From the IMG/VR virus record IMGVR_UViG_3300021387_000129: DNA of 20,000 nt; one strand, given 5' to 3'. Source of the stretch: an uncultured virus (IMG/VR IMGVR_UViG_3300021387_000129) (taxonomy: Duplodnaviria > Heunggongvirae > Uroviricota > Caudoviricetes). Below the pieces are notes generated by a model that made no database searches, was not told the origin of the DNA, and saw only the letters and a program-made list of their open reading frames with translations. A program made the translations under genes and the position numbers. Shown here one piece after another: positions 899 through 15,755 of this stretch. How positions within the stretch are numbered: position 1 is the stretch's first letter; every line of letters begins with the position of its first letter.

Positions 899-925
899 CC
901 ATTATCAGCGTTGTTTTTACTGCGA
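899..925 (-). promoter_or_regulatory. TCGCA-N5-AACA promoter-like motif
   Basis: TCGCA GTAAA AACA ACGCT GATAAT GG. Confidence 0.75.
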
Positions 926-1073
926 GTTTTTGACTGTAATATCTCGCATAGTCTATCCACAGGCATATACATCAATTCCGTCAATGGTATGCCTTCATAT
1001 GGGTCTGTCATGTCACTCGACTCCAGTACCTTCGAATATCCCAGTAATCATAGATCAGCTCGTCAAGGCCGAT

Positions 1074-1970
1074 TCACACGCAATCAGCCTTAATTCTCCA
1101 TCCAAGCCGCATGTCGCTCGGTTCCGTATCGAAATGAATCGCCCAACAGGTATGCTCGCCGTCTGGAGCCGTATCAGGAACCATGTAGATCTCAATCGGG
1201 TCGTCATCAGATCCATCAATTTCGAATCCTTTGTTAAATCCCTGATGCCTGAGCGAAGGCGCATTTGCAATTTTGTCATCAAACCCAATATATTTCACAA
1301 TTTGGCTGAGCGACACACCAACTTCCTTGCCGTCCCAATCTGAGGACATAATCGCGTTCTCATACCTGCTTCTCGGAGGAAGTGCCTTCATCTCACATTG
1401 AGCCTGCTTAATCGCCAACTCGACCCTCTGATGCGTAGAGAAAAATGGGAGCTTGAGCCAATCCAGAACAAACAGTTTGCCTTCTTCTTCTCCCTGCTCA
1501 AAATGAGGAGCTCCGAGAATATCCGCCTTGGTCAGTTTCTGAATATTCTCCTCCGCAACCTTCTGCTGAACTTCCTTCTCTTTCTTTTCGCCCAGCACTT
1601 CTTTGCTCGCCTGCTTGTAATTGTCATAAAGCTTGCGAGTACCTGTATACAGCGCAGTCATCTCAGCCAGGTTCTTCGCAGACACCCGATTACTCCCGAT
1701 ACCGGCTGCAGAAGTACCAACAGCGCACAGAGCAGTGGGAATATAGTCCTTCCAGCAGTTCTTTACTTTGTCCTGGATGCTCAGATCCTCATACTTGATC
1801 CCTTTCTCATCCAGCTTCCGAATACTCTTGATGGTATCCTTATGAGAAATAACCGCCGTCCCAATCGTGCCCACCACATTCACACCTGTCAGAATATTGG
1901 CCCGATTCTTTACAATCCAGTCGCCAGCCTGCTGCGCCATAAGCTTGTAACCTTCAATAATGTAACCCAT
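1074..1970 (-). CDS. conserved phage protein, DUF6353-like (N-terminal hydrophobic helices)
   Basis: 298 aa, AGAAAGGAG RBS; NILTGVNVVGTIGTAVIS...WKDYIPTAL resembles that siphovirus family (from memory, not searched). Confidence 0.6.
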   Translation of the reverse strand: MGYIIEGYKLMAQQAGDWIVKNRANILTGVNVVGTIGTAVISHKDTIKSIRKLDEKGIKYEDLSIQDKVKNCWKDYIPTALCAVGTSAAGIGSNRVSAKNLAEMTALYTGTRKLYDNYKQASKEVLGEKKEKEVQQKVAEENIQKLTKADILGAPHFEQGEEEGKLFVLDWLKLPFFSTHQRVELAIKQAQCEMKALPPRSRYENAIMSSDWDGKEVGVSLSQIVKYIGFDDKIANAPSLRHQGFNKGFEIDGSDDDPIEIYMVPDTAPDGEHTCWAIHFDTEPSDMRLGWRIKADCV

Positions 1971-3865: not shown

Positions 3866-4324
3866 CTTCTGCCCACCGAATATCGACTTTTCAAGTGCAA
3901 TATTTACAGGATGCCCATGTTCAACGACCAAAGGTTGCTGGTGGATAAACTTCTTTTTTAAAACGCGTCCATCAGTAGTCCTGATAGTTATTTCCGGGTA
4001 CTCAATATGATCACCATCCGTATCTCCTTCGTCCGGTTCATCATCCTGTGGCGATTCCTCTTCTGCCAATTGCCGTTCTACTTTCCAATTGGATGCATAT
4101 ACCTCCAACCCCAACTGAAGAAGCTGGACAATCCTTTTGGTAATATTCTCGACATCCTCAATGTCATAGAATGGGAGTGTCATCACCTCAAATGTCGGAT
4201 ACTTGTCCCCAACATTCCATGCCGTCTTAAGAATATACTTCCTGAATTTTGCATACTCTCCAGCATTCTGAAACCGTACCTTAATCGTCACCTGTCCAGT
4301 AAACTTCTCAACATAATCGCTCAT
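3857..4324 (-). CDS. hypothetical protein (backbone)
   Basis: AGAAAGGAG RBS before MSDYVEK; acidic linker. Confidence 0.75.
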   Translation of the reverse strand: MSDYVEKFTGQVTIKVRFQNAGEYAKFRKYILKTAWNVGDKYPTFEVMTLPFYDIEDVENITKRIVQLLQLGLEVYASNWKVERQLAEEESPQDDEPDEGDTDGDHIEYPEITIRTTDGRVLKKKFIHQQPLVVEHGHPVNIALEKSIFGGQKSQ

Positions 4325-4364
4325 ATGCAATCTCCTTTCTAAATTAGACATGACTAATTCGATA

Positions 4365-4401
4365 GCGAAAGAAAAGGAGCCATGTGTTTCCACACAGCTC
4401 C
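4365..4401 (-). terminator. type A terminator followed by TTTCGC
   Basis: 37 bp identical to 3331-3367. Confidence 0.8.
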
Positions 4402-4407
4402 AAATTC

Positions 4408-4707
4408 TTAAATGTTCGTTTCTTTGTTCTTAATGGATTCTTCAACCCATTTATCCGCATTTCTAAACAGTTGATCTGCTTTTTCCTTATTGCTCATATT
4501 ACCTTTCAACAAATTGTCCATCATTTCCACAAAATGCTTTGTCATCACCTCCGTAGTTTTTGCCAGCACTTGACATGCTTTGGCCGTCCTTCTCGACTGA
4601 TATTCCTCCAGTTCTCTAAGAACCAGATGAAACATCATCGGGACAACAGCACCAACCACAATGCCAGTCACCACAATCACCAGAATTGTTCCAAAAACAC
4701 CGTTCAT
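4408..4707 (-). CDS. membrane-anchored helical protein (cassette cargo)
   Basis: GGAGG RBS before MNGVFG; TM helix. Confidence 0.75.
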   Translation of the reverse strand: MNGVFGTILVIVVTGIVVGAVVPMMFHLVLRELEEYQSRRTAKACQVLAKTTEVMTKHFVEMMDNLLKGNMSNKEKADQLFRNADKWVEESIKNKETNI

Positions 4708-4747
4708 AGACATACCTCCTAATAATATAAGGTAGACATCTCTGTCT

Positions 4748-4774
4748 CCATTATCAGCGTTGTTTCTACTGCGA
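4748..4774 (-). promoter_or_regulatory. TCGCA-N5-AACA motif
   Basis: One mismatch versus the 899-925 copy, with flanking AAAAAC and GGAGA also shared. Confidence 0.75.
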
Positions 4775-4792
4775 GTTTTTGCGAAAAAAGAA

Positions 4793-4940
4793 AGGACTTG
4801 TGGGCTTCGAACCCACGTCTCCACATACATGGTGTTCTACCATTAAACTATTCTATCGGCTAGTAAAACCGAGACAGAATTTCTTCCGCTTTTACGCCTT
4901 TCAACGCTCGGCCCTCCGACGGGTTTATACTCCCAATCCT
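4793..4940 (-). ncRNA. tRNA-like structured RNA carried as cassette cargo
   Basis: Closing stem AGGATT/AGTCCT; D-arm-like TAGTTTAATGGTAGAAC; T-arm GTGGG-TTCGAAG-CCCAC; extra domain with two GAAA-capped hairpins; own motif upstream and T-tract-TCGC downstream. Confidence 0.6.
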
Positions 4941-4942
4941 TC

Positions 4943-4969
4943 CTATTTATAGGGATGTTTAAGTTGCGA
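4943..4969 (-). promoter_or_regulatory. TCGCA-N5-AACA motif
   Basis: TCGCA ACTTA AACA TCCCT ATAAAT AG. Confidence 0.7.
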
Positions 4970-4980
4970 ATATAATAGGA

Positions 4981-5008
4981 AGAAAAAGGAAAGGGTTTGT
5001 TCAACCCT
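4981..5008 (-). terminator. type B terminator
   Basis: AGGGTT-GAACA-AACCCT plus T-tract, overlapping the stop codon. Confidence 0.65.
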
Positions 5009-5414
5009 CGCCTTCGGAATTTTCATAATTCTCCATCATGTCGCAAGTCAAGTCAAATGTCCATTGTACTCTATCCCAGCATTTTGTATGATCATAACCG
5101 TCTTCCTCCTGAATCGTGATCTTAATATACTCAGATCCACAGGTCCATTCGTTATCGCCACTTACATACATCGGCATATAGATACTAACATCACATCTAT
5201 ACAACATTTCTTCAAAACTCGCGAAACTAGATTTCGGAAATTCATGTTCTTTAACAAATTCCTTTAAATCAATCTTTTCACTTGTCTGAAAGTAAATAAC
5301 ATCATTGAAATTTTCTTTCAGGTCCCATTCATGATAGTCGTAATTTACATACGAGCATGCGCTCGCACACATAACTACAAATACCAACATAATCACCAGA
5401 ATAAACTTTTTCAT
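5001..5414 (-). CDS. putative lipoprotein (cassette cargo)
   Basis: MKKFILVIMLVFVVMCASAC signal peptide with lipobox-like ASAC; AAGGAG RBS. Confidence 0.75.
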   Translation of the reverse strand: MKKFILVIMLVFVVMCASACSYVNYDYHEWDLKENFNDVIYFQTSEKIDLKEFVKEHEFPKSSFASFEEMLYRCDVSIYMPMYVSGDNEWTCGSEYIKITIQEEDGYDHTKCWDRVQWTFDLTCDMMENYENSEGEG

Positions 5415-8406: not shown

Positions 8407-8454
8407 TCCTTGGTAAGGATGAGGTCGCCGGTTCGAATCCGGCCATCAGCTCCA
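8407..8454 (+). other. attP core: 3' half of tRNA-Thr(GGT)
   Basis: Anticodon loop TTGGTAA, T-arm GCCGG-TTCGAAT-CCGGC, CATCAGC-T-CCA; no 5' half; adjacent to the integrase. Confidence 0.85.
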
Positions 8455-8498: not shown

Positions 8499-9722
8499 TT
8501 ATCCTGTAGACTCCTCGGAAGATCTCATACTTTGAGAATTGTCCAGTGTTTTGTCCGGTTGAGGGTCATTCATGACGAGTCTGACGCTCTCAAATAATTC
8601 GGTTCTGTACTTCACATAGCGTTTCTCTGTTATGTCGCTCTTGGAATGACCAAGCATGCGTGAAATAACGTCCACAGGAATGCCTGATTCACGCCATTCA
8701 GTAGCACACGTATCACGAAAATCATGTGCTGTGTATTGCTGCAAGTCAAATTGGCACCTGATCCGGTTAAATTCCCGCTTAGCCTCTGAATAAGATAGCG
8801 GAGTTTCCCGTTTACCCTCATCCAGATAGCTGCTGAGAATAAAACCAGTAGCATACTTCGGCTTTAATGTCTCCCATACGACTTTTGGCAAGGGAATTTC
8901 CCTGTCGCTCGTCTTGGATTTTGGTGGTTTGATCTCTGGCTGATTCCTCGTTGGATGAACAACAGCCCTTTGAATATGCACCCAGCCCGTCTGAGGATCA
9001 ATATCTTCCCATTTAAGACCGAGCACTTCTTCAAATCGCAGACCCAAATAACACAGGAGTACAGCCATATTCCGAGTACGACTTACAGGCATTTGCGAGA
9101 TTTGAGCTCTTACTTCTGCCATCTTTTCACGAGGTATAGCCTGATGATGCGTCGTAGCTGCCCCTCCAATTACCAGTTTCTCCGACTTCATTGGATTTCG
9201 GGAAATATGTCCATCTTCTACAGCTGAATTCAGCGCAGGAGACATGTTATTCTTGATTTTAAGCAGCGTCTCATGGGAATATCCGTCCTTCTCCAGCTGG
9301 TTAAACCACTCCTGCAATCCTGTAGTGGTGATCTGGTCTACAGGAATGCTACCCCACTTGGGAAGAATATGCTTGCTTACGATGTACGCTCTTGAACTCT
9401 TGGTTAATGACTGCTGTTTAGACTTGTAAACCTTGTTGAACTCCTGTAGATAGCTTCCAAATAAAGGTTCTTTTGGCTTTGGCTTCTCTATATGGCTGAT
9501 GATGCCAGGCATGACGGTGCCCTCCTGGAGACACAGTTGCAAATATCCTTCAAGCAGCTCCTTGAGGGTTTTGCCTGTCACCCAGCACTCTTTACCACCA
9601 ATATTCATCTGCTGCTTATAGCGCTTAGGCATGGTTTCTCCTTCTGCGCAAAGCCCTATTCCGTTTACAAGGTTCAGCAATATACCAAGGACCTGACTTT
9701 GAGTATAAAGAACCTCAGACAT
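8499..9722 (-). CDS. int: tyrosine recombinase / phage integrase
   Basis: Catalytic motifs GLRFEE, PKSK, HDFR, LGHS...RY; SAM-like core-binding domain; alternative start at 9632. Confidence 0.95.
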   Translation of the reverse strand: MSEVLYTQSQVLGILLNLVNGIGLCAEGETMPKRYKQQMNIGGKECWVTGKTLKELLEGYLQLCLQEGTVMPGIISHIEKPKPKEPLFGSYLQEFNKVYKSKQQSLTKSSRAYIVSKHILPKWGSIPVDQITTTGLQEWFNQLEKDGYSHETLLKIKNNMSPALNSAVEDGHISRNPMKSEKLVIGGAATTHHQAIPREKMAEVRAQISQMPVSRTRNMAVLLCYLGLRFEEVLGLKWEDIDPQTGWVHIQRAVVHPTRNQPEIKPPKSKTSDREIPLPKVVWETLKPKYATGFILSSYLDEGKRETPLSYSEAKREFNRIRCQFDLQQYTAHDFRDTCATEWRESGIPVDVISRMLGHSKSDITEKRYVKYRTELFESVRLVMNDPQPDKTLDNSQSMRSSEESTG

Positions 9723-11724: not shown

Positions 11725-12166
11725 TATTCTCAACCCCATTCTTCAGCTTGCGAATCTCTTCCCTAATCCCTTCAATATCTTCTTTGGTGGCGTAATTCCC
11801 ATGGCTCATACCATTAGTACCAGAAGCCCCATTCAAAAGCTGCTGATTCTGCTGCTCAGGCATCTCATACTTCAGCCTCTGCAGCGGATTCGGAATACCC
11901 ATGGGCCCCCAGCTTTTCAGCCAAATAACCGTGTCCGTGCTGTCCCAAAGCGGGATAGGCTGGTTCGCAGGGAGTCCGGCAGGCATCTGGAAAGCCTTGG
12001 CACCAACTTCTCCTTCAACCCACTCCATTGGCTTCAGCTGCATAGGCGCGGCACTCTGCTGATAATTGGGAGCAGGCTGCTGAGCATAACTTTGTTGGTA
12101 AGGATATGCATTCGGCTGATAGGCCGTGGACGGATAGATGTTATACGGGTTGTAGTAATTAGCCAT
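11717..12166 (-). CDS. conserved phage hypothetical protein (Y/Q-rich N-terminus)
   Basis: AAGGAGGT RBS; WVEGEVGAKAF...LWDS...YATKEDI pattern. Confidence 0.8.
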   Translation of the reverse strand: MANYYNPYNIYPSTAYQPNAYPYQQSYAQQPAPNYQQSAAPMQLKPMEWVEGEVGAKAFQMPAGLPANQPIPLWDSTDTVIWLKSWGPMGIPNPLQRLKYEMPEQQNQQLLNGASGTNGMSHGNYATKEDIEGIREEIRKLKNGVENNA

Positions 12167-12180
12167 AGAAATACCTCCTT

Positions 12181-12375
12181 TTAATCATTGAGTGGACACC
12201 AGAATGGTTTTTCTTTTTCATGATAGTATATGTTTATTAAGTGTACTTCACACGGACAGCCTTCGCATTTGTTCATTTCAGGTTTGCTCTCCAAGTTTTC
12301 AGTCGGTCTCTTGTATAACAATTTACCAGTTTTACTGTATACACTTTCTAAATCCAACAATTCATAATGCGCCAC
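12181..12375 (-). CDS. small Cys-containing hypothetical protein
   Basis: CEGCPC...WCPL; AAGGAG RBS. Confidence 0.55.
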   Translation of the reverse strand: MAHYELLDLESVYSKTGKLLYKRPTENLESKPEMNKCEGCPCEVHLINIYYHEKEKPFWCPLND

Positions 12376-12396
12376 TGACTAACTATCTCCTTTTAC

Positions 12397-12573
12397 TTAA
12401 TCGCACCACGTGTAAATTACGTATTGACATATTTCCCACAGGTTATCGAGGGTAATATTTTCATTTCCTTTCCAATTACAATCATCATGCATTCGTTCAT
12501 TCCACTCTTCTTTTGACATTTCTTTTTCAAGATAGCACAGTCCATTTTCTACCAAATGTTCTAAATTACTCAT
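12397..12573 (-). CDS. 58-aa hypothetical protein
   Basis: Hand-translated MSNLEHLVENG...YVIYTWCD; AGAAAGGAG RBS. Confidence 0.65.
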   Translation of the reverse strand: MSNLEHLVENGLCYLEKEMSKEEWNERMHDDCNWKGNENITLDNLWEICQYVIYTWCD

Positions 12574-12602
12574 CGGCTATATCATCTCCTTTCTAATAAG
12601 TT

Positions 12603-12690
12603 AAAGAAAAAAGAGAAAGGCGTGCATTAATCCGAATTCTCAGATTTGCCTTTCTCTCCCTCTCTATTTAGAGCGTTGTTTTTACTGCGA
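12603..12690 (-). other. empty cassette / small RNA: motif, hairpin, T-tract
   Basis: TCGCA GTAAA AACA ACGCT CTAAAT AG (12664-12690); stem AGAGAAAGGC/GCCTTTCTCT. Confidence 0.6.
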
Positions 12691-12734
12691 GTTTTTAGAC
12701 TTGTTTAATTAACGATTGTGATTTAAAGTGTTAT

Positions 12735-12872
12735 TTAATAAAACTTCTTTTTTCGTGTTTTTCCACACAGGTTGCACTTGCACAAAAACACGCCGACGTG
12801 TAAACCAGAATAGTCCCAATAATCATAAATTGGCTTGTCAGTTATCTTATGCCATTTGTGAATACAAAACAT
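12735..12872 (-). CDS. 45-aa zinc-ribbon-like protein
   Basis: MFCIHKW...CKCNLCGKTRKKKFY; AGGAG RBS. Confidence 0.65.
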   Translation of the reverse strand: MFCIHKWHKITDKPIYDYWDYSGLHVGVFLCKCNLCGKTRKKKFY

Positions 12873-12883
12873 TTGTTAATCTC

Positions 12884-13003
12884 CTATTTTGGTTTCTTTT
12901 CGCAATAGTCCCTAAACGGACACCATGAACAAGCAAACGACCGTGCAGGGCAATCCGTATCGGGACTATCTATCGTAATGGGAGAAAATCCTTCTCCAAT
13001 CAT
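12884..13003 (-). CDS. 39-aa Cys-rich peptide
   Basis: MIGEGFSP...CPARSFACSWCPFRDYCEKKPK; GGTGGTG RBS. Confidence 0.5.
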   Translation of the reverse strand: MIGEGFSPITIDSPDTDCPARSFACSWCPFRDYCEKKPK

Positions 13004-13034
13004 TGCACATCACCACCTTTGTTAATGTGTTATT

Positions 13035-15755
13035 TTATCCTTTTTTTAGTTTGTAATAACCAGAACCATAGTTGTTTTTTACAATGACTTTGATTTTTGA
13101 TCCTGCAACGATATCACCTATTGATATGCTCCCGTATTCTTCAATTACTTCGATTATTCTGCCGTTAAACGTATCTGGGACATCGATGTATTTATTTACG
13201 GACGAATGCGCGTCGACCATCAAATAGATGTCATCGCCGACATAATACCACGCAACGGAAGGCAATTCGTTATCATACGTGATCAGCGGGCATCTGAATC
13301 CAACCATGCTCAAAGTGTCTTCGTCTGTTACGGGTTTGGGGGTTGCGGATGAATAAGAATAGAAAAACGGATGCATTTTGTGTGTTTCGTATATAAACCC
13401 GGCACTGTTGATGACTTTTCTCAGATCGTCAACTCCGTCAGCGTACTTGTTGTTGTACCCTATAACCATCCCGTTTCCCGCTGTGTTGCTGTTGGTATAC
13501 TGGTAGTAGCGAATTGGGGGTTTGTTTGCATCGCGCCATGTGCTCGGTGTCAGTTCTTGTCGTGCGCTTGGGATCGCGCCAACGCCATCGAAAGTCGTAC
13601 CGGGTACAGACCAGTAGTTAAACCCACCAGACGTGGATTGCACACCATGCGCAAACTCGAAATCCCCATCTCTGTTAAAGCCGATTGATTCGTATACCGT
13701 GATACTCCCGCGTTCACTACAATGAAGCACCAGATTCATAGTGAAAAAGCTGTCTGCGATGGCTTCGCTGAAATACGATGAGTTCGTGTTGTTTCCGACA
13801 TGGTTTTTTAGGTACGTTATCATCGCCGCTGAGGAGATGACATCGTACGAGTTCACGATATCAAAGTACGAGCTTCTGTACACCCCGTTTTCCGTTATCT
13901 CGTTTCCTTTGTCATCAAACACCTTTACGGTCTGGTGGTTGATGGCAGGTGTTATTTGTTGACCACGTTCGTACGAACTAAACGTCTTTGTAACACCATC
14001 CCTCGACATGCTATTTACTTCGATAGCAAGCCAATCAAGACCATTATGTGTGTTTACAGGGAAACCACCCCAAATGACGGTGTCGCTTACTATGCGGATG
14101 ATAACAAATTCTTTCCCGTCTATCAGCCATGTTTCGCCGATGTTGCTCTCTGTAAACCCGTGTGCTGATTCGAACGTTAGTTTGTAGCCATATGCGTTCC
14201 CGTGGTTACCACCAACGATTGTTCCGTTCATACGTACACCCGTCATATCGTCTGTGGCAGTTTTGAAGAGCGTTCCGGCTGTTACGTTGTCAGCACTTGT
14301 TTTCGGCAACGTGTAGTAGCTATCGAAGTTAAACACGTTGTCCGTTGTGTTTATAATAAACTTAATGGCTATATCGAGTTCAGAATCGAATCTGCTCCTG
14401 ACATGAAAATCTGTTCCGATTTTGTTTAATATAACATCTCCATTCGGTGTGATTTGCTCTATCCTCTTTTCGAGTTCGCTTATTTTTTTAGTGTTTGAAT
14501 TAATCTTTGATTGTAGAGTTGTCTCTCCATAAACCAATATCTCGCTTATAGGTATTCCAGACAGATCATCATGTACTCCGTAGTACTCGTCCGATGAGCT
14601 ATGAACGCTTCTGTTGGTGATATAGAAAACCACATACTCAACCCCGGAGTTATCTTTAATCTCTATTGAAAGGTCTTTATCATTACCGGAGAAGTTAACG
14701 TAATCTGTTGAACCGCCATGCCAAATGGCATTTGTCAAGCCATATGCTCTATACCCATTCGATGAATTATTTATATTAAAAGCAAAAAGCGGGTTTTTCG
14801 ATGCCCCGTAAAGAGCAACATCGCCAATGTAAAGCGTTTCTGTTTTTATGTTTATAGTTCTTCCTAACGCAGACACAGGGATATATCCGCTTAGTATACC
14901 ATTAGCGAACGACACAAACGATCCGTTACTATTCTGTATGATGTAATGATCCACAACGTAATCGCTTACATCTACTGTTCCCATATTGAAACTGTTTATA
15001 TTTTTTATTTTGGCCGTGTTTGCGGCAACATCTGTTTCAAGATGTCCGATTCTGTTTTCTGCGCCTAAAAGCCCTTTTTCTTTTGTTGCTATAGCCCAAT
15101 ACACTACGTCCTCATGTGTTAAAGCCGGGTGGGCAGAACCGTAGTATGCGTTAAAAGCAATTTTTGCGGCTGTCGGATATGCCGTTTTTATGCTCGATGA
15201 TACGACGGTAAGGCTTCGTGAAATAAATTCACCAAGAAATGTTCCAGACTCATTCCAACAAACAACGTTCCATATGGAGTAACCAGAAAAAGCATTTATA
15301 AGTTCATATGTTACATCTTCTTGAATATCTACGATGTCAGTGCAAGCCCAACCATCATCGGACCTAACCTGTCCTGTTGATTTGAGGTAATATTTGTTTG
15401 GTAGAAAATAACCTGTGCCGCCACCATATATATATAGTCCGTCCTTTTTATAAAAAGCGCTCTTTAAGTCACCAATCTCATCCTCAAAGCTCACTTCATC
15501 CCAATGCGCAGCCGTCCAGGATTCAGTTGTTTGAATATCCGTTTTTGCCACGTATGGTTTATCCGCATATAGACAATAAGTTCCAGCAGTAACAGGGAAA
15601 GTCAAATCCTCATATCTTGAGGCAATAATGACAGTATCACCACGATCACCCTTAGCACCTGGCGCTCCAGGATCACCCTGTCTTCCGGGCGGCCCAACAA
15701 TCGCAGGAATATCAATCCAATTCCCTTGACTATCCTTGACTCTCAATATATTCAT
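13035..15755 (-). CDS. large fibre / receptor-binding-like protein with collagen repeats
   Basis: GPPGRQGDPGAPGAKGDRGD, short carbohydrate-binding-like motif, coiled segments, beta-rich body; GGAGG RBS at MNILRV. Confidence 0.75.
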   Translation of the reverse strand: MNILRVKDSQGNWIDIPAIVGPPGRQGDPGAPGAKGDRGDTVIIASRYEDLTFPVTAGTYCLYADKPYVAKTDIQTTESWTAAHWDEVSFEDEIGDLKSAFYKKDGLYIYGGGTGYFLPNKYYLKSTGQVRSDDGWACTDIVDIQEDVTYELINAFSGYSIWNVVCWNESGTFLGEFISRSLTVVSSSIKTAYPTAAKIAFNAYYGSAHPALTHEDVVYWAIATKEKGLLGAENRIGHLETDVAANTAKIKNINSFNMGTVDVSDYVVDHYIIQNSNGSFVSFANGILSGYIPVSALGRTINIKTETLYIGDVALYGASKNPLFAFNINNSSNGYRAYGLTNAIWHGGSTDYVNFSGNDKDLSIEIKDNSGVEYVVFYITNRSVHSSSDEYYGVHDDLSGIPISEILVYGETTLQSKINSNTKKISELEKRIEQITPNGDVILNKIGTDFHVRSRFDSELDIAIKFIINTTDNVFNFDSYYTLPKTSADNVTAGTLFKTATDDMTGVRMNGTIVGGNHGNAYGYKLTFESAHGFTESNIGETWLIDGKEFVIIRIVSDTVIWGGFPVNTHNGLDWLAIEVNSMSRDGVTKTFSSYERGQQITPAINHQTVKVFDDKGNEITENGVYRSSYFDIVNSYDVISSAAMITYLKNHVGNNTNSSYFSEAIADSFFTMNLVLHCSERGSITVYESIGFNRDGDFEFAHGVQSTSGGFNYWSVPGTTFDGVGAIPSARQELTPSTWRDANKPPIRYYQYTNSNTAGNGMVIGYNNKYADGVDDLRKVINSAGFIYETHKMHPFFYSYSSATPKPVTDEDTLSMVGFRCPLITYDNELPSVAWYYVGDDIYLMVDAHSSVNKYIDVPDTFNGRIIEVIEEYGSISIGDIVAGSKIKVIVKNNYGSGYYKLKKG

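Follow-up and report, generated by a model that had tools for sequence, protein, structure and literature searches.

Destruction of tRNA is a common endpoint of bacterial immunity, and the answers of phages to it consist, to our knowledge, of replacement tRNAs, repair enzymes and proteins. Among the RNAs that carry a tRNA-like part, tmRNA has no D stem. The tRNA-like domain of tmRNA (RF00023) joins a tRNA-like core to a large inserted domain, which, according to sources available in part, lies at the anticodon position, while the CCA end is kept and the molecule is charged. YrlA RNAs are defined, in the available sections of PMC4201824, by a T arm placed before the D arm, the motif GNCGAAN0-1G and a Ro60 gene within 4 kb, and the same sections give Deinococcus Yrn1 with D and T arms in unpermuted order. 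The confinement of conservation to the elbow in YrlA has been read as the binding of an elbow-reading protein (10.1101/312249, available part), and many enzymes read the tRNA elbow (PMC10424219, available part).

The RNA described here, which is found in gut phages, lies on the minus strand of a 20,000-nt stretch of DNA from an uncultured virus of the Caudoviricetes (the window) and, like tmRNA, combines a tRNA-like core with a large inserted domain. With YrlA (RF02553; PMC4201824 and 10.1101/312249, in the parts available) it shares a D/T elbow module, no anticodon loop, no free CCA, variable stems, the joining of the tRNA-like module to a second module and the occurrence in phages. However, YrlA is circularly permuted, with its acceptor closed by a loop and its second module at the anticodon position, whereas the second module of the phage RNA is placed between the acceptor 5' strand and U8. 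A preliminary description, made from the letters of the window, had already set the RNA apart from permuted YrlA; in fact, D precedes T in all 49 members of the family, and no match to the YrlA covariance model was found in the window. The phage RNA is not YrlA, even if it may work like YrlA.

Architecture of the RNA

The elements follow one another as P1, P2 hairpin, P3, AGG, variable tip, YUAD, P3', linker, A7 and U8, D arm, stunted anticodon arm, variable loop, T arm, A66, P1' and U-tract. In the window, they and their flanks are located as follows.

4991..5009, minus strand: terminator-like hairpin of the upstream gene (ORF 5471-5001)
4946..4969, minus strand: repeated phage promoter-like motif directly before the RNA; the same motif stands ahead of relatives
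4789..4944, minus strand: whole tRNA-like non-coding RNA, with ends placed from P1 and the flanking motifs; 49 distinct relatives, with covariation
4935..4944, minus strand: 5' strand of P1, the stem at the acceptor position (core 4940-4935); five of six core pairs change on both sides
4921..4934, minus strand: P2 hairpin, three G-C pairs and the conserved loop (A)G-N-R-N-AAA
4916..4920, minus strand: 5' strand of P3, 5 bp with 4859-4855; 97.7% paired in 43 members, with two to four standard pair types per position
4913..4915, minus strand: AGG strand of the conserved asymmetric internal loop (A unpaired, G-U, G-Y), G-U in 33 of 33; AGG also served as a parser anchor, so its counts in the 43- and 49-member sets are by selection
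4868..4912, minus strand: variable distal domain, a three-way junction in the window's lineage, 17-85 nt among relatives
4912-4907/4873-4868, minus strand: P4
4906-4895, minus strand: P5, with a GAAA cap
4889-4874, minus strand: P6
4855..4863, minus strand: CUAG strand of the internal loop (4863-4860) and 3' strand of P3 (4859-4855)
4834..4851, minus strand: A7-U8-A9 and D arm (4848-4834), loop AAYGGUA; partial Rfam tRNA match
4821..4832, minus strand: stunted anticodon arm, 12 nt (4 bp, 4-nt loop)
4799..4820, minus strand: variable loop (4820-4817) ending in C48, T arm (4816-4800) with loop UUCGAAG and G60, and unpaired A66 at 4799
4784..4798, minus strand: 3' strand of P1 (4798-4789) and U-rich tract (4792-4784), without CCA
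4750..4774, minus strand: promoter-like motif of the following unit (family D2; gene from about 4713 to 4408)

The terminal stem P1 can be extended to 10 bp (4944-4935/4798-4789), and the conserved core of the insert is, as judged by sequence comparison, the P2 hairpin together with the 5-bp P3 and the AGG/YUAD internal loop. All helices named in the preliminary description are found in the sequence, in place and on the minus strand, and the relatives support the terminal stem, GTCGG/CCGAT, the stem below the junction, the D arm, the 12-nt anticodon arm and the T arm. The 9-bp stem AGGGCCGAG/CTCGGTTTT is better drawn as 6 bp (4912-4907/4873-4868) followed by the conserved AGG/CUAG internal-loop motif, and the P2 hairpin (4934-4921) with its conserved A-rich loop had been overlooked in the inserted domain. 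Both GAAA-capped hairpins were confirmed, but a GNRA-type cap is conserved only on the first, the loop of the second being free.

Constrained folding of the tip in 49 members gave one hairpin in 28, two in at least 20 (a floor, two members of the window's lineage having folded as one hairpin) and three in 1. Since the tip varies in this way and two distal hairpins occur in 20 of the 49, the three-way junction, on which the first description of the insert had centered, is present here as a variable, lineage-specific periphery and not as the conserved core.

The AGG/YUAD loop presumably resembles GNRA tetraloop receptors in its letters. In common with the IC3 and 11-nt GNRA receptors (PMC2275092; 10.1101/2024.05.28.596103; available sections), it is a small asymmetric A-rich internal loop beside G-C/G-U pairs, and an A-rich hairpin loop that could dock lies nearby. 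However, of the CCC:GGG signature of the IC3 class (PMC2275092, same sections) the asymmetric loop is present here and the CCC strand absent, and the partner of a GNRA receptor is a 4-nt loop, whereas the P2 loop has 7-10 nt. That P2 docks on the AGG/YUAD loop is our guess, and a contact between the two is only suggested by the shortened P2 loop of the forms without P3 (L144, L157 and L171).

Compared with canonical tRNA (RF00005), the RNA has the same U8, D arm, variable loop and T arm, and its D-stem variants covary in a tRNA-like manner; different from canonical tRNA, it lacks the 17-nt anticodon arm with a 7-nt loop, the contiguous 7-bp acceptor adjoining U8 and the CCA, and it carries an 85-nt insertion between P1 and A7. 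With Rfam 15 at E values up to 1, the only match over the RNA in the window was a partial one to tRNA (29.1 bits, model positions 8-63), and at gathering score the loci of 10 relatives gave over the RNA only partial tRNA matches, in 3 of them; no family beyond the partial tRNA was thus matched. The window gave no Rfam match to a self-cleaving ribozyme or riboswitch, 4789-4944 gave none to RF00023, and ARAGORN reported 0 genes in the window. With neither a 17-nt anticodon arm nor an encoded CCA, the RNA looks like a tRNA mimic that would not function as a tRNA, as had been claimed from the start.

Relatives, covariation and sister forms

Relatives were collected by pattern scans. Those of viral contigs returned at least 120 stretches in the broadest case, mostly other tRNA-like elements, and 3 in another; further ones returned 10 matches (8 family, 2 chance), 21 (17 family or sister forms) and 34 (18 family). 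A metagenome scan gave 39 matches, and a species-genome scan gave 19, 2 of them from the family; these two sit on contigs of phage type, one binned as uncultured Clostridium sp. and the other as uncultured Prevotella sp. Because of these two bin titles the host is uncertain; genes of the Gram-positive lysis type suggest Clostridia. Altogether, 49 distinct members with the full insert core, out of 281 sequences collected, fall into 13 lineages, all in phage-type DNA, lineages being single-linkage clusters at 80% identity and L160, identical to the window RNA, being counted once with it.

A covariance model of 33 members scored members outside its training set (L172, L211, L192 and L200) at 114-132 bits, sister forms at 59-70 bits and insert-less tRNA-like elements at no more than 52. 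Model R1, run on 150 further genomes of the class of G018, gave nothing at E<=1e-6 among the 20 candidates scored per genome. A search with the DUF6353 protein of L174 led to 14 near-identical loci; a weak model match was present in 12 of 14 closely similar DUF6353 loci, and the seven inspected by eye are insert-less forms. The DUF6353 protein of the window, used as a query in a survey of DUF6353 phages, gave no matches.

Folding of the single sequence is weak evidence, and the case rests on the relatives. The minimum-energy fold of 4793-4940 has a z of -2.45 (3 of 200 shuffles as good) and does not form the inserted arm; the insert alone reaches -0.51 and the plus strand -1.42, and the comparative fold, extended under constraint, lies 3.6 kcal/mol above the minimum. 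Of 1281 cells in an unfitted MAFFT alignment (33 sequences), 85.9% are paired, versus 74.7% after shuffling (equaled in 0 of 500) and 31-48% with the partners slid, and 29 of 44 pairs show changes on both sides. Anchor-based pairing in 43 members amounted to 97.7% for P3 and 100% each for the D and T stems (0 of 2000 strand swaps in each case). With one sequence per lineage (n=13), P3 was paired at 93.8% versus 66.4% (0 of 5000), a figure lowered by 5 misparsed members of the 49, one of them a lineage representative; the T stem reached 100% versus 79.3% (0 of 5000) and the D stem 100% versus 95.1% (82 of 5000). Covariation among the relatives supports the terminal stem, the inserted arm and, in tRNA order, the arms at the D, anticodon and T positions. 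RNAalifold on 15 close members recovered, unaided, P1 to P5 and the D, anticodon and T stems; P6, the length of which varies, is absent from the consensus but folds in single sequences.

In the same one-per-lineage set P2 gave no covariation signal, since its sequence is nearly invariant; one compensated case is found in L202. Two other readings of P2 were tried and rejected. As a DNA -10 box, it is contradicted by variants that break the box and by a lack of enrichment outside the RNAs (15 matches versus 11.4 expected, several of them copies of the same site). P2 also has what we take to be a likeness to the type I-E crRNA handle, but a mimic of that handle does not agree with a stretch that stays a hairpin and is compensated in L202.

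A decayed tRNA gene or attachment-site relic beside chance hairpins would fit the merely partial Rfam tRNA match, the different minimum-energy fold and the presence in the phage of an integrase and, at 8415-8448, of a second tRNA half. Such a relic is hardly credible for an RNA that has a promoter motif of its own and fixed non-standard letters and that shows, across 13 lineages, compensatory changes in the D stem, the T stem and the insert.

The letters U8, A14, G18, G19, U54, U55, C56, R57 and A58 are kept, and the D loop AAYGGUA, the T loop UUCRAAG, U8, C48, G60 and A66 occur in 49 of 49 members, although the invariance of the elbow letters is partly by selection, most search patterns having required them. 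Most patterns also demanded G60; three scans did not, and every full member that they returned has G60, among them 4 new ones recovered without any constraint on the T loop. The part conserved least is the anticodon arm: it measures 8-15 nt in 39 members, 20-23 nt in 10 and 17 nt in none of the 49, several scans having left a 17-nt arm permissible, and its loop reads GCAA in 16 of the 49, with 24 other loop readings in the remainder. An encoded CCA within 16 nt of the T stem was found in 0 of 49, and the letters of P1 are free, so that acceptor identity is lost.

The preliminary description had offered, as an example of a function, a decoy for anticodon nucleases (PrrC or AriB type), a proposal in keeping with the tRNA shape and with the frequency of such nucleases among anti-phage effectors (PMC13462974, available sections). 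Given invariant D and T loops, an anticodon arm that is canonical in no member (free in length and letters, with a GCAA cap in 16) and the lack of an encoded CCA, we regard the family as an elbow mimic and the anticodon-nuclease decoy as very unlikely.

Members with the insert carry non-standard letters, namely A15 with C48, plus G60. In seven insert-less forms that follow the same promoter motif, position 60 is always U and the 15-48 pair is standard in 6 of 7, which indicates that the A15/C48/G60 combination travels with an insert. Insert-less units (L219, L221, L222, L224, L228, L230, L231, L017, L061, L089 and L245) have a short anticodon arm, a long terminal stem, no CCA and the same promoter motif. 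Sister forms bear at the same point a different three-way junction, the first hairpin of which has a conserved GUUAYG loop (L149, L163 and L205), a minimal hairpin (L144, L157 and L171) or a short loop (L088). Two model matches each were found in G012, G021 and G025.

L137 contains at 920-1110 (+) a second, tandem unit with its own promoter motif, in which a P2-like hairpin and a stem lie 5' of an uninterrupted tRNA-like chassis (U48, U60), that is, the same parts in another topology. Viral tRNA-like elements of other kinds, with a shortened anticodon arm and no relation to this promoter system, recur in L003, L007, L011, L014, L023, L027 and their kin, in L010 and its kin, and in L013, L026 and L038; short-armed tRNA mimics seem common in viral contigs.

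Putative transcription unit and genomic setting

The window is phage DNA, with an integrase (8499-9722), a holin, tail genes and, on the minus strand, a series of small genes, most of them without family; one of these encodes a DUF6353 protein, relatives of which occur in Arthrobacter, Streptomyces, Gordonia and Rhodococcus phages and in gut siphoviruses (99 records). Such a small-gene architecture is common to related actinophage clusters (PMC13313380, available part). None of 50,697 named phage records covered 80% of the window by blastn, the best reaching 30%.

The small genes of the window have a repeated motif in front and often a hairpin with a U-tract behind. Between 2042 and 8317, the motif has 7 copies on the minus strand and 0 on the plus strand, with 0.11 expected (300 shuffles), and it would be a promoter. 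Only about 14 nt separate its CGCA block from its TATAAT-like end, and ribosome-binding sites or RNA 5' stems start within 0-3 nt of it, which is at odds with a sigma-70 promoter and may point to a polymerase or activator specific to the phage. In other units the distance from the motif to the ribosome-binding site is 1-2 nt, and in relatives the terminal stem begins after 0-3 nt; given these spacings, we place the RNA start tentatively near 4944 and not at 4940. In L197, the RNA is followed closely by a gene at 4138-5247 (+), the product of which combines an HTH, a sigma-70 region 4 and the C-terminal domain of RNA polymerase alpha and is a candidate for activating the repeated motifs.

Promoter-like motif, RNA and U-tract thus appear, on sequence grounds, to form a self-standing unit. 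Three RNA runs of a single sample yielded 0 contigs on the window, a neutral outcome as regards expression. The designation as cassette cargo is apt in one sense, that of a promoter-to-U-tract unit among shuffled accessory genes. A coding reading, in which ORF 4830-4408 begins within the RNA, was rejected on account of the indels of any length in relatives and of a ribosome-binding site before 4713. Since the next unit has its own motif at 4750..4774, the RNA in the window is not the leader of the gene at 4713-4408.

This point also bears on the hypothesis of a cis element, that is, a tRNA-shaped 5' leader that is stabilizing, attenuating or processed (RNase P/Z type) and controls the gene behind it. 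In L194, L198, L147, L161, L174 and L266, inspected by eye, a ribosome-binding site and an ORF follow the U-tract with no motif seen, and likewise in the forms with other inserts L144, L157 and L205. However, the window, like most close relatives, has another promoter motif immediately behind the RNA, and between lineages the downstream genes are unrelated, so that we judge a cis role to be unlikely.

The RNA is surrounded by small shuffled accessory genes, and no neighbor gene is common across lineages (374 flanking ORFs in 195 clusters), synteny being limited to within lineages. In relatives, the accessory region contains a Tad3 anti-Thoeris gene in L197 (9637-10086 (+), above the cut-off), a Lar match in L202 (below the cut-off) and Ro60 in L200. 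Some 4 kb upstream of its family RNA, L174 has a reverse transcriptase gene at 11857-13041 (-), and an RT-18 RNA match falls at 12926-13001. Beside the integrase of the window, 8415-8448 (+) holds the 3' portion of a tRNA, comprising T arm and acceptor strand, with a weak tmRNA-model match, most likely the integrase attachment site.

Candidate functions and the Ro60 question

Conservation is confined to the elbow, the core and the root of the insert, while the anticodon arm, P1 and the tip vary, which is the pattern taken in YrlA for the sign of an elbow-reading partner (10.1101/312249). The reading that we rank first, while giving it somewhat less than even weight, is a decoy that titrates, in stoichiometric amounts, a host protein recognizing the T arm or elbow. 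The RNA would be transcribed abundantly early in infection and fold to an L-shaped core presenting the tRNA elbow; unable to be charged or to decode, it would soak up an elbow or T-arm reader, the likeliest targets being immune nucleases that attack tRNA or other host enzymes directed at tRNA. The insert would probably pack the A-rich loop of P2 on the AGG/YUAD loop or bind a protein, and would shield the acceptor side; the three-way junction would be an ornament of one lineage. Readers of the elbow or T arm are favored because the D and T loops are invariant and the anticodon arm is free, and the titrating decoy is placed first because of the counter-defense genes in the region, the phages with two copies and the known T-arm-reading nucleases. 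In particular, Cash cuts the T-loop UUC (PMC13462974) and Cas12a3 grips the T arm and acceptor stem (PMC12851939), according to the available sections of both sources. Two copies in some phages (G012, G021 and G025; L137) are as expected for a titrating RNA, and the insert-less versions behind the same motif in related phages count for a decoy as well.

Some points tell against the decoy. By analogy, an intact UUC T loop would be cut by a Cash-type enzyme instead of blocking it, and Cas12a3 would need the CCA tail, which is absent here; moreover, the position in an accessory region does not single out counter-defense, and the conserved P2 loop and AGG/YUAD loop are left unexplained. To roles other than the five readings named in this report we assign a small chance.

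At least three types of module are mounted on the chassis. It is possible to hypothesize, although we hold it doubtful, a phage-clade-wide family of anti-defense RNAs, in which a tRNA chassis stripped of anticodon and CCA carries modules at the acceptor/T junction and acts as an uncleavable or sacrificial sponge for elbow-reading immune effectors. If the sponge reading is true, the family would stand as the RNA equivalent of protein sponges and as a modular tRNA scaffold of natural origin. The family offers a ready test set, with one chassis bearing no insert, a small insert, a simple arm or a three-way junction, together with fixed non-standard letters, and it adds to tRNA mimics a topology, with a domain between acceptor strand and U8, that is missed by tRNA finders and Rfam.

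The family is absent from Rfam 15, and no description of it, nor of a non-coding tRNA mimic of this build, was found in the literature searched, which covers subscription papers thinly. PMC10690425, in its available part, reports 10,006 anonymous viral RNA candidates, some of them tRNA-like; four family motifs and six contig identifiers are absent from its readable tables, and a fragment may be listed there anonymously. The available part of PMC10085705 has nothing on the family. Judged from sequence, the family is real and apparently undescribed, a variant of tRNA-mimic non-coding RNAs with a putative function.

A further reading is that of a Y-RNA-like tether or gate, in which the tRNA module binds an elbow-reading effector and the P3 and AGG/YUAD helix binds a second protein, Ro60 of host or phage or another one, so that the two proteins are brought together. 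Its bipartite build and the D and T arms of Yrn1, which stand in the same order (PMC4201824, available sections), agree with this. A Ro60 gene was found in 3 of 25 records in one set and 0 of 10 in another; by PHROGs naming there is none among the 31 ORFs of the 20,000-nt window. Of six records that have the P2-P3 type RNA and a completeness of 90% or more, two have Ro60 on the same strand (L200 and L211), which speaks for a tether, but four have none, the two positives belong to one lineage, and the distances to their Ro60, about 7 and 15 kb, exceed the 4 kb given in the available part of PMC4201824. Both positives, moreover, carry short RNAs of their own beside Ro60, one with a YrlA score of 36.7 bits against a 69-bit threshold. 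The Ro motif GNCGAAN0-1G occurs in 4 of 43 members, inside a variable stem, and not in the window, and P3 covaries freely, unlike a Ro site read by sequence. We consider the tether improbable, albeit worth retaining, since a different RNA, in the third Ro60-positive record (L033), shares YUAGC letters in its 3' strand with P3.

That RNA, also present in L218, has the same D-anticodon-T chassis and GNCGAAN0-1G and lies about 330 nt upstream of Ro60. Like Yrn1, it has D, short anticodon and T arms in tRNA order and a stem formed by the two ends of the RNA. However, in Yrn1 and the L033/L218 RNA the terminal stem bears the Ro site, whereas in the window family the letters of the terminal stem are not conserved and the junction gives off a folded P2-P3 module; the Levitt letters differ likewise, being A15-U48 with Y60 in L033 against A15/C48 with G60 in the window family. 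As an RNA adjacent to Ro60 turned up on the same chassis, the family has a bearing on the origin of Y RNAs from tRNAs.

Upstream of Ro60 in G008/G016 (L217:590-1230 (+) and L216), we noticed at least five short RNAs with a GYAG...UACUUCG pattern, a tRNA-Leu lying between them and one giving the weak YrlA match of 36.7 bits. In L218 (G022), a Y-RNA-like array, the same as in L033, lies upstream of Ro60 on the minus strand, at about 960-1330 in the numbering of that strand; the Rfam YrlA model gave no match on it, and it is possibly an unrecorded class of Y RNA.
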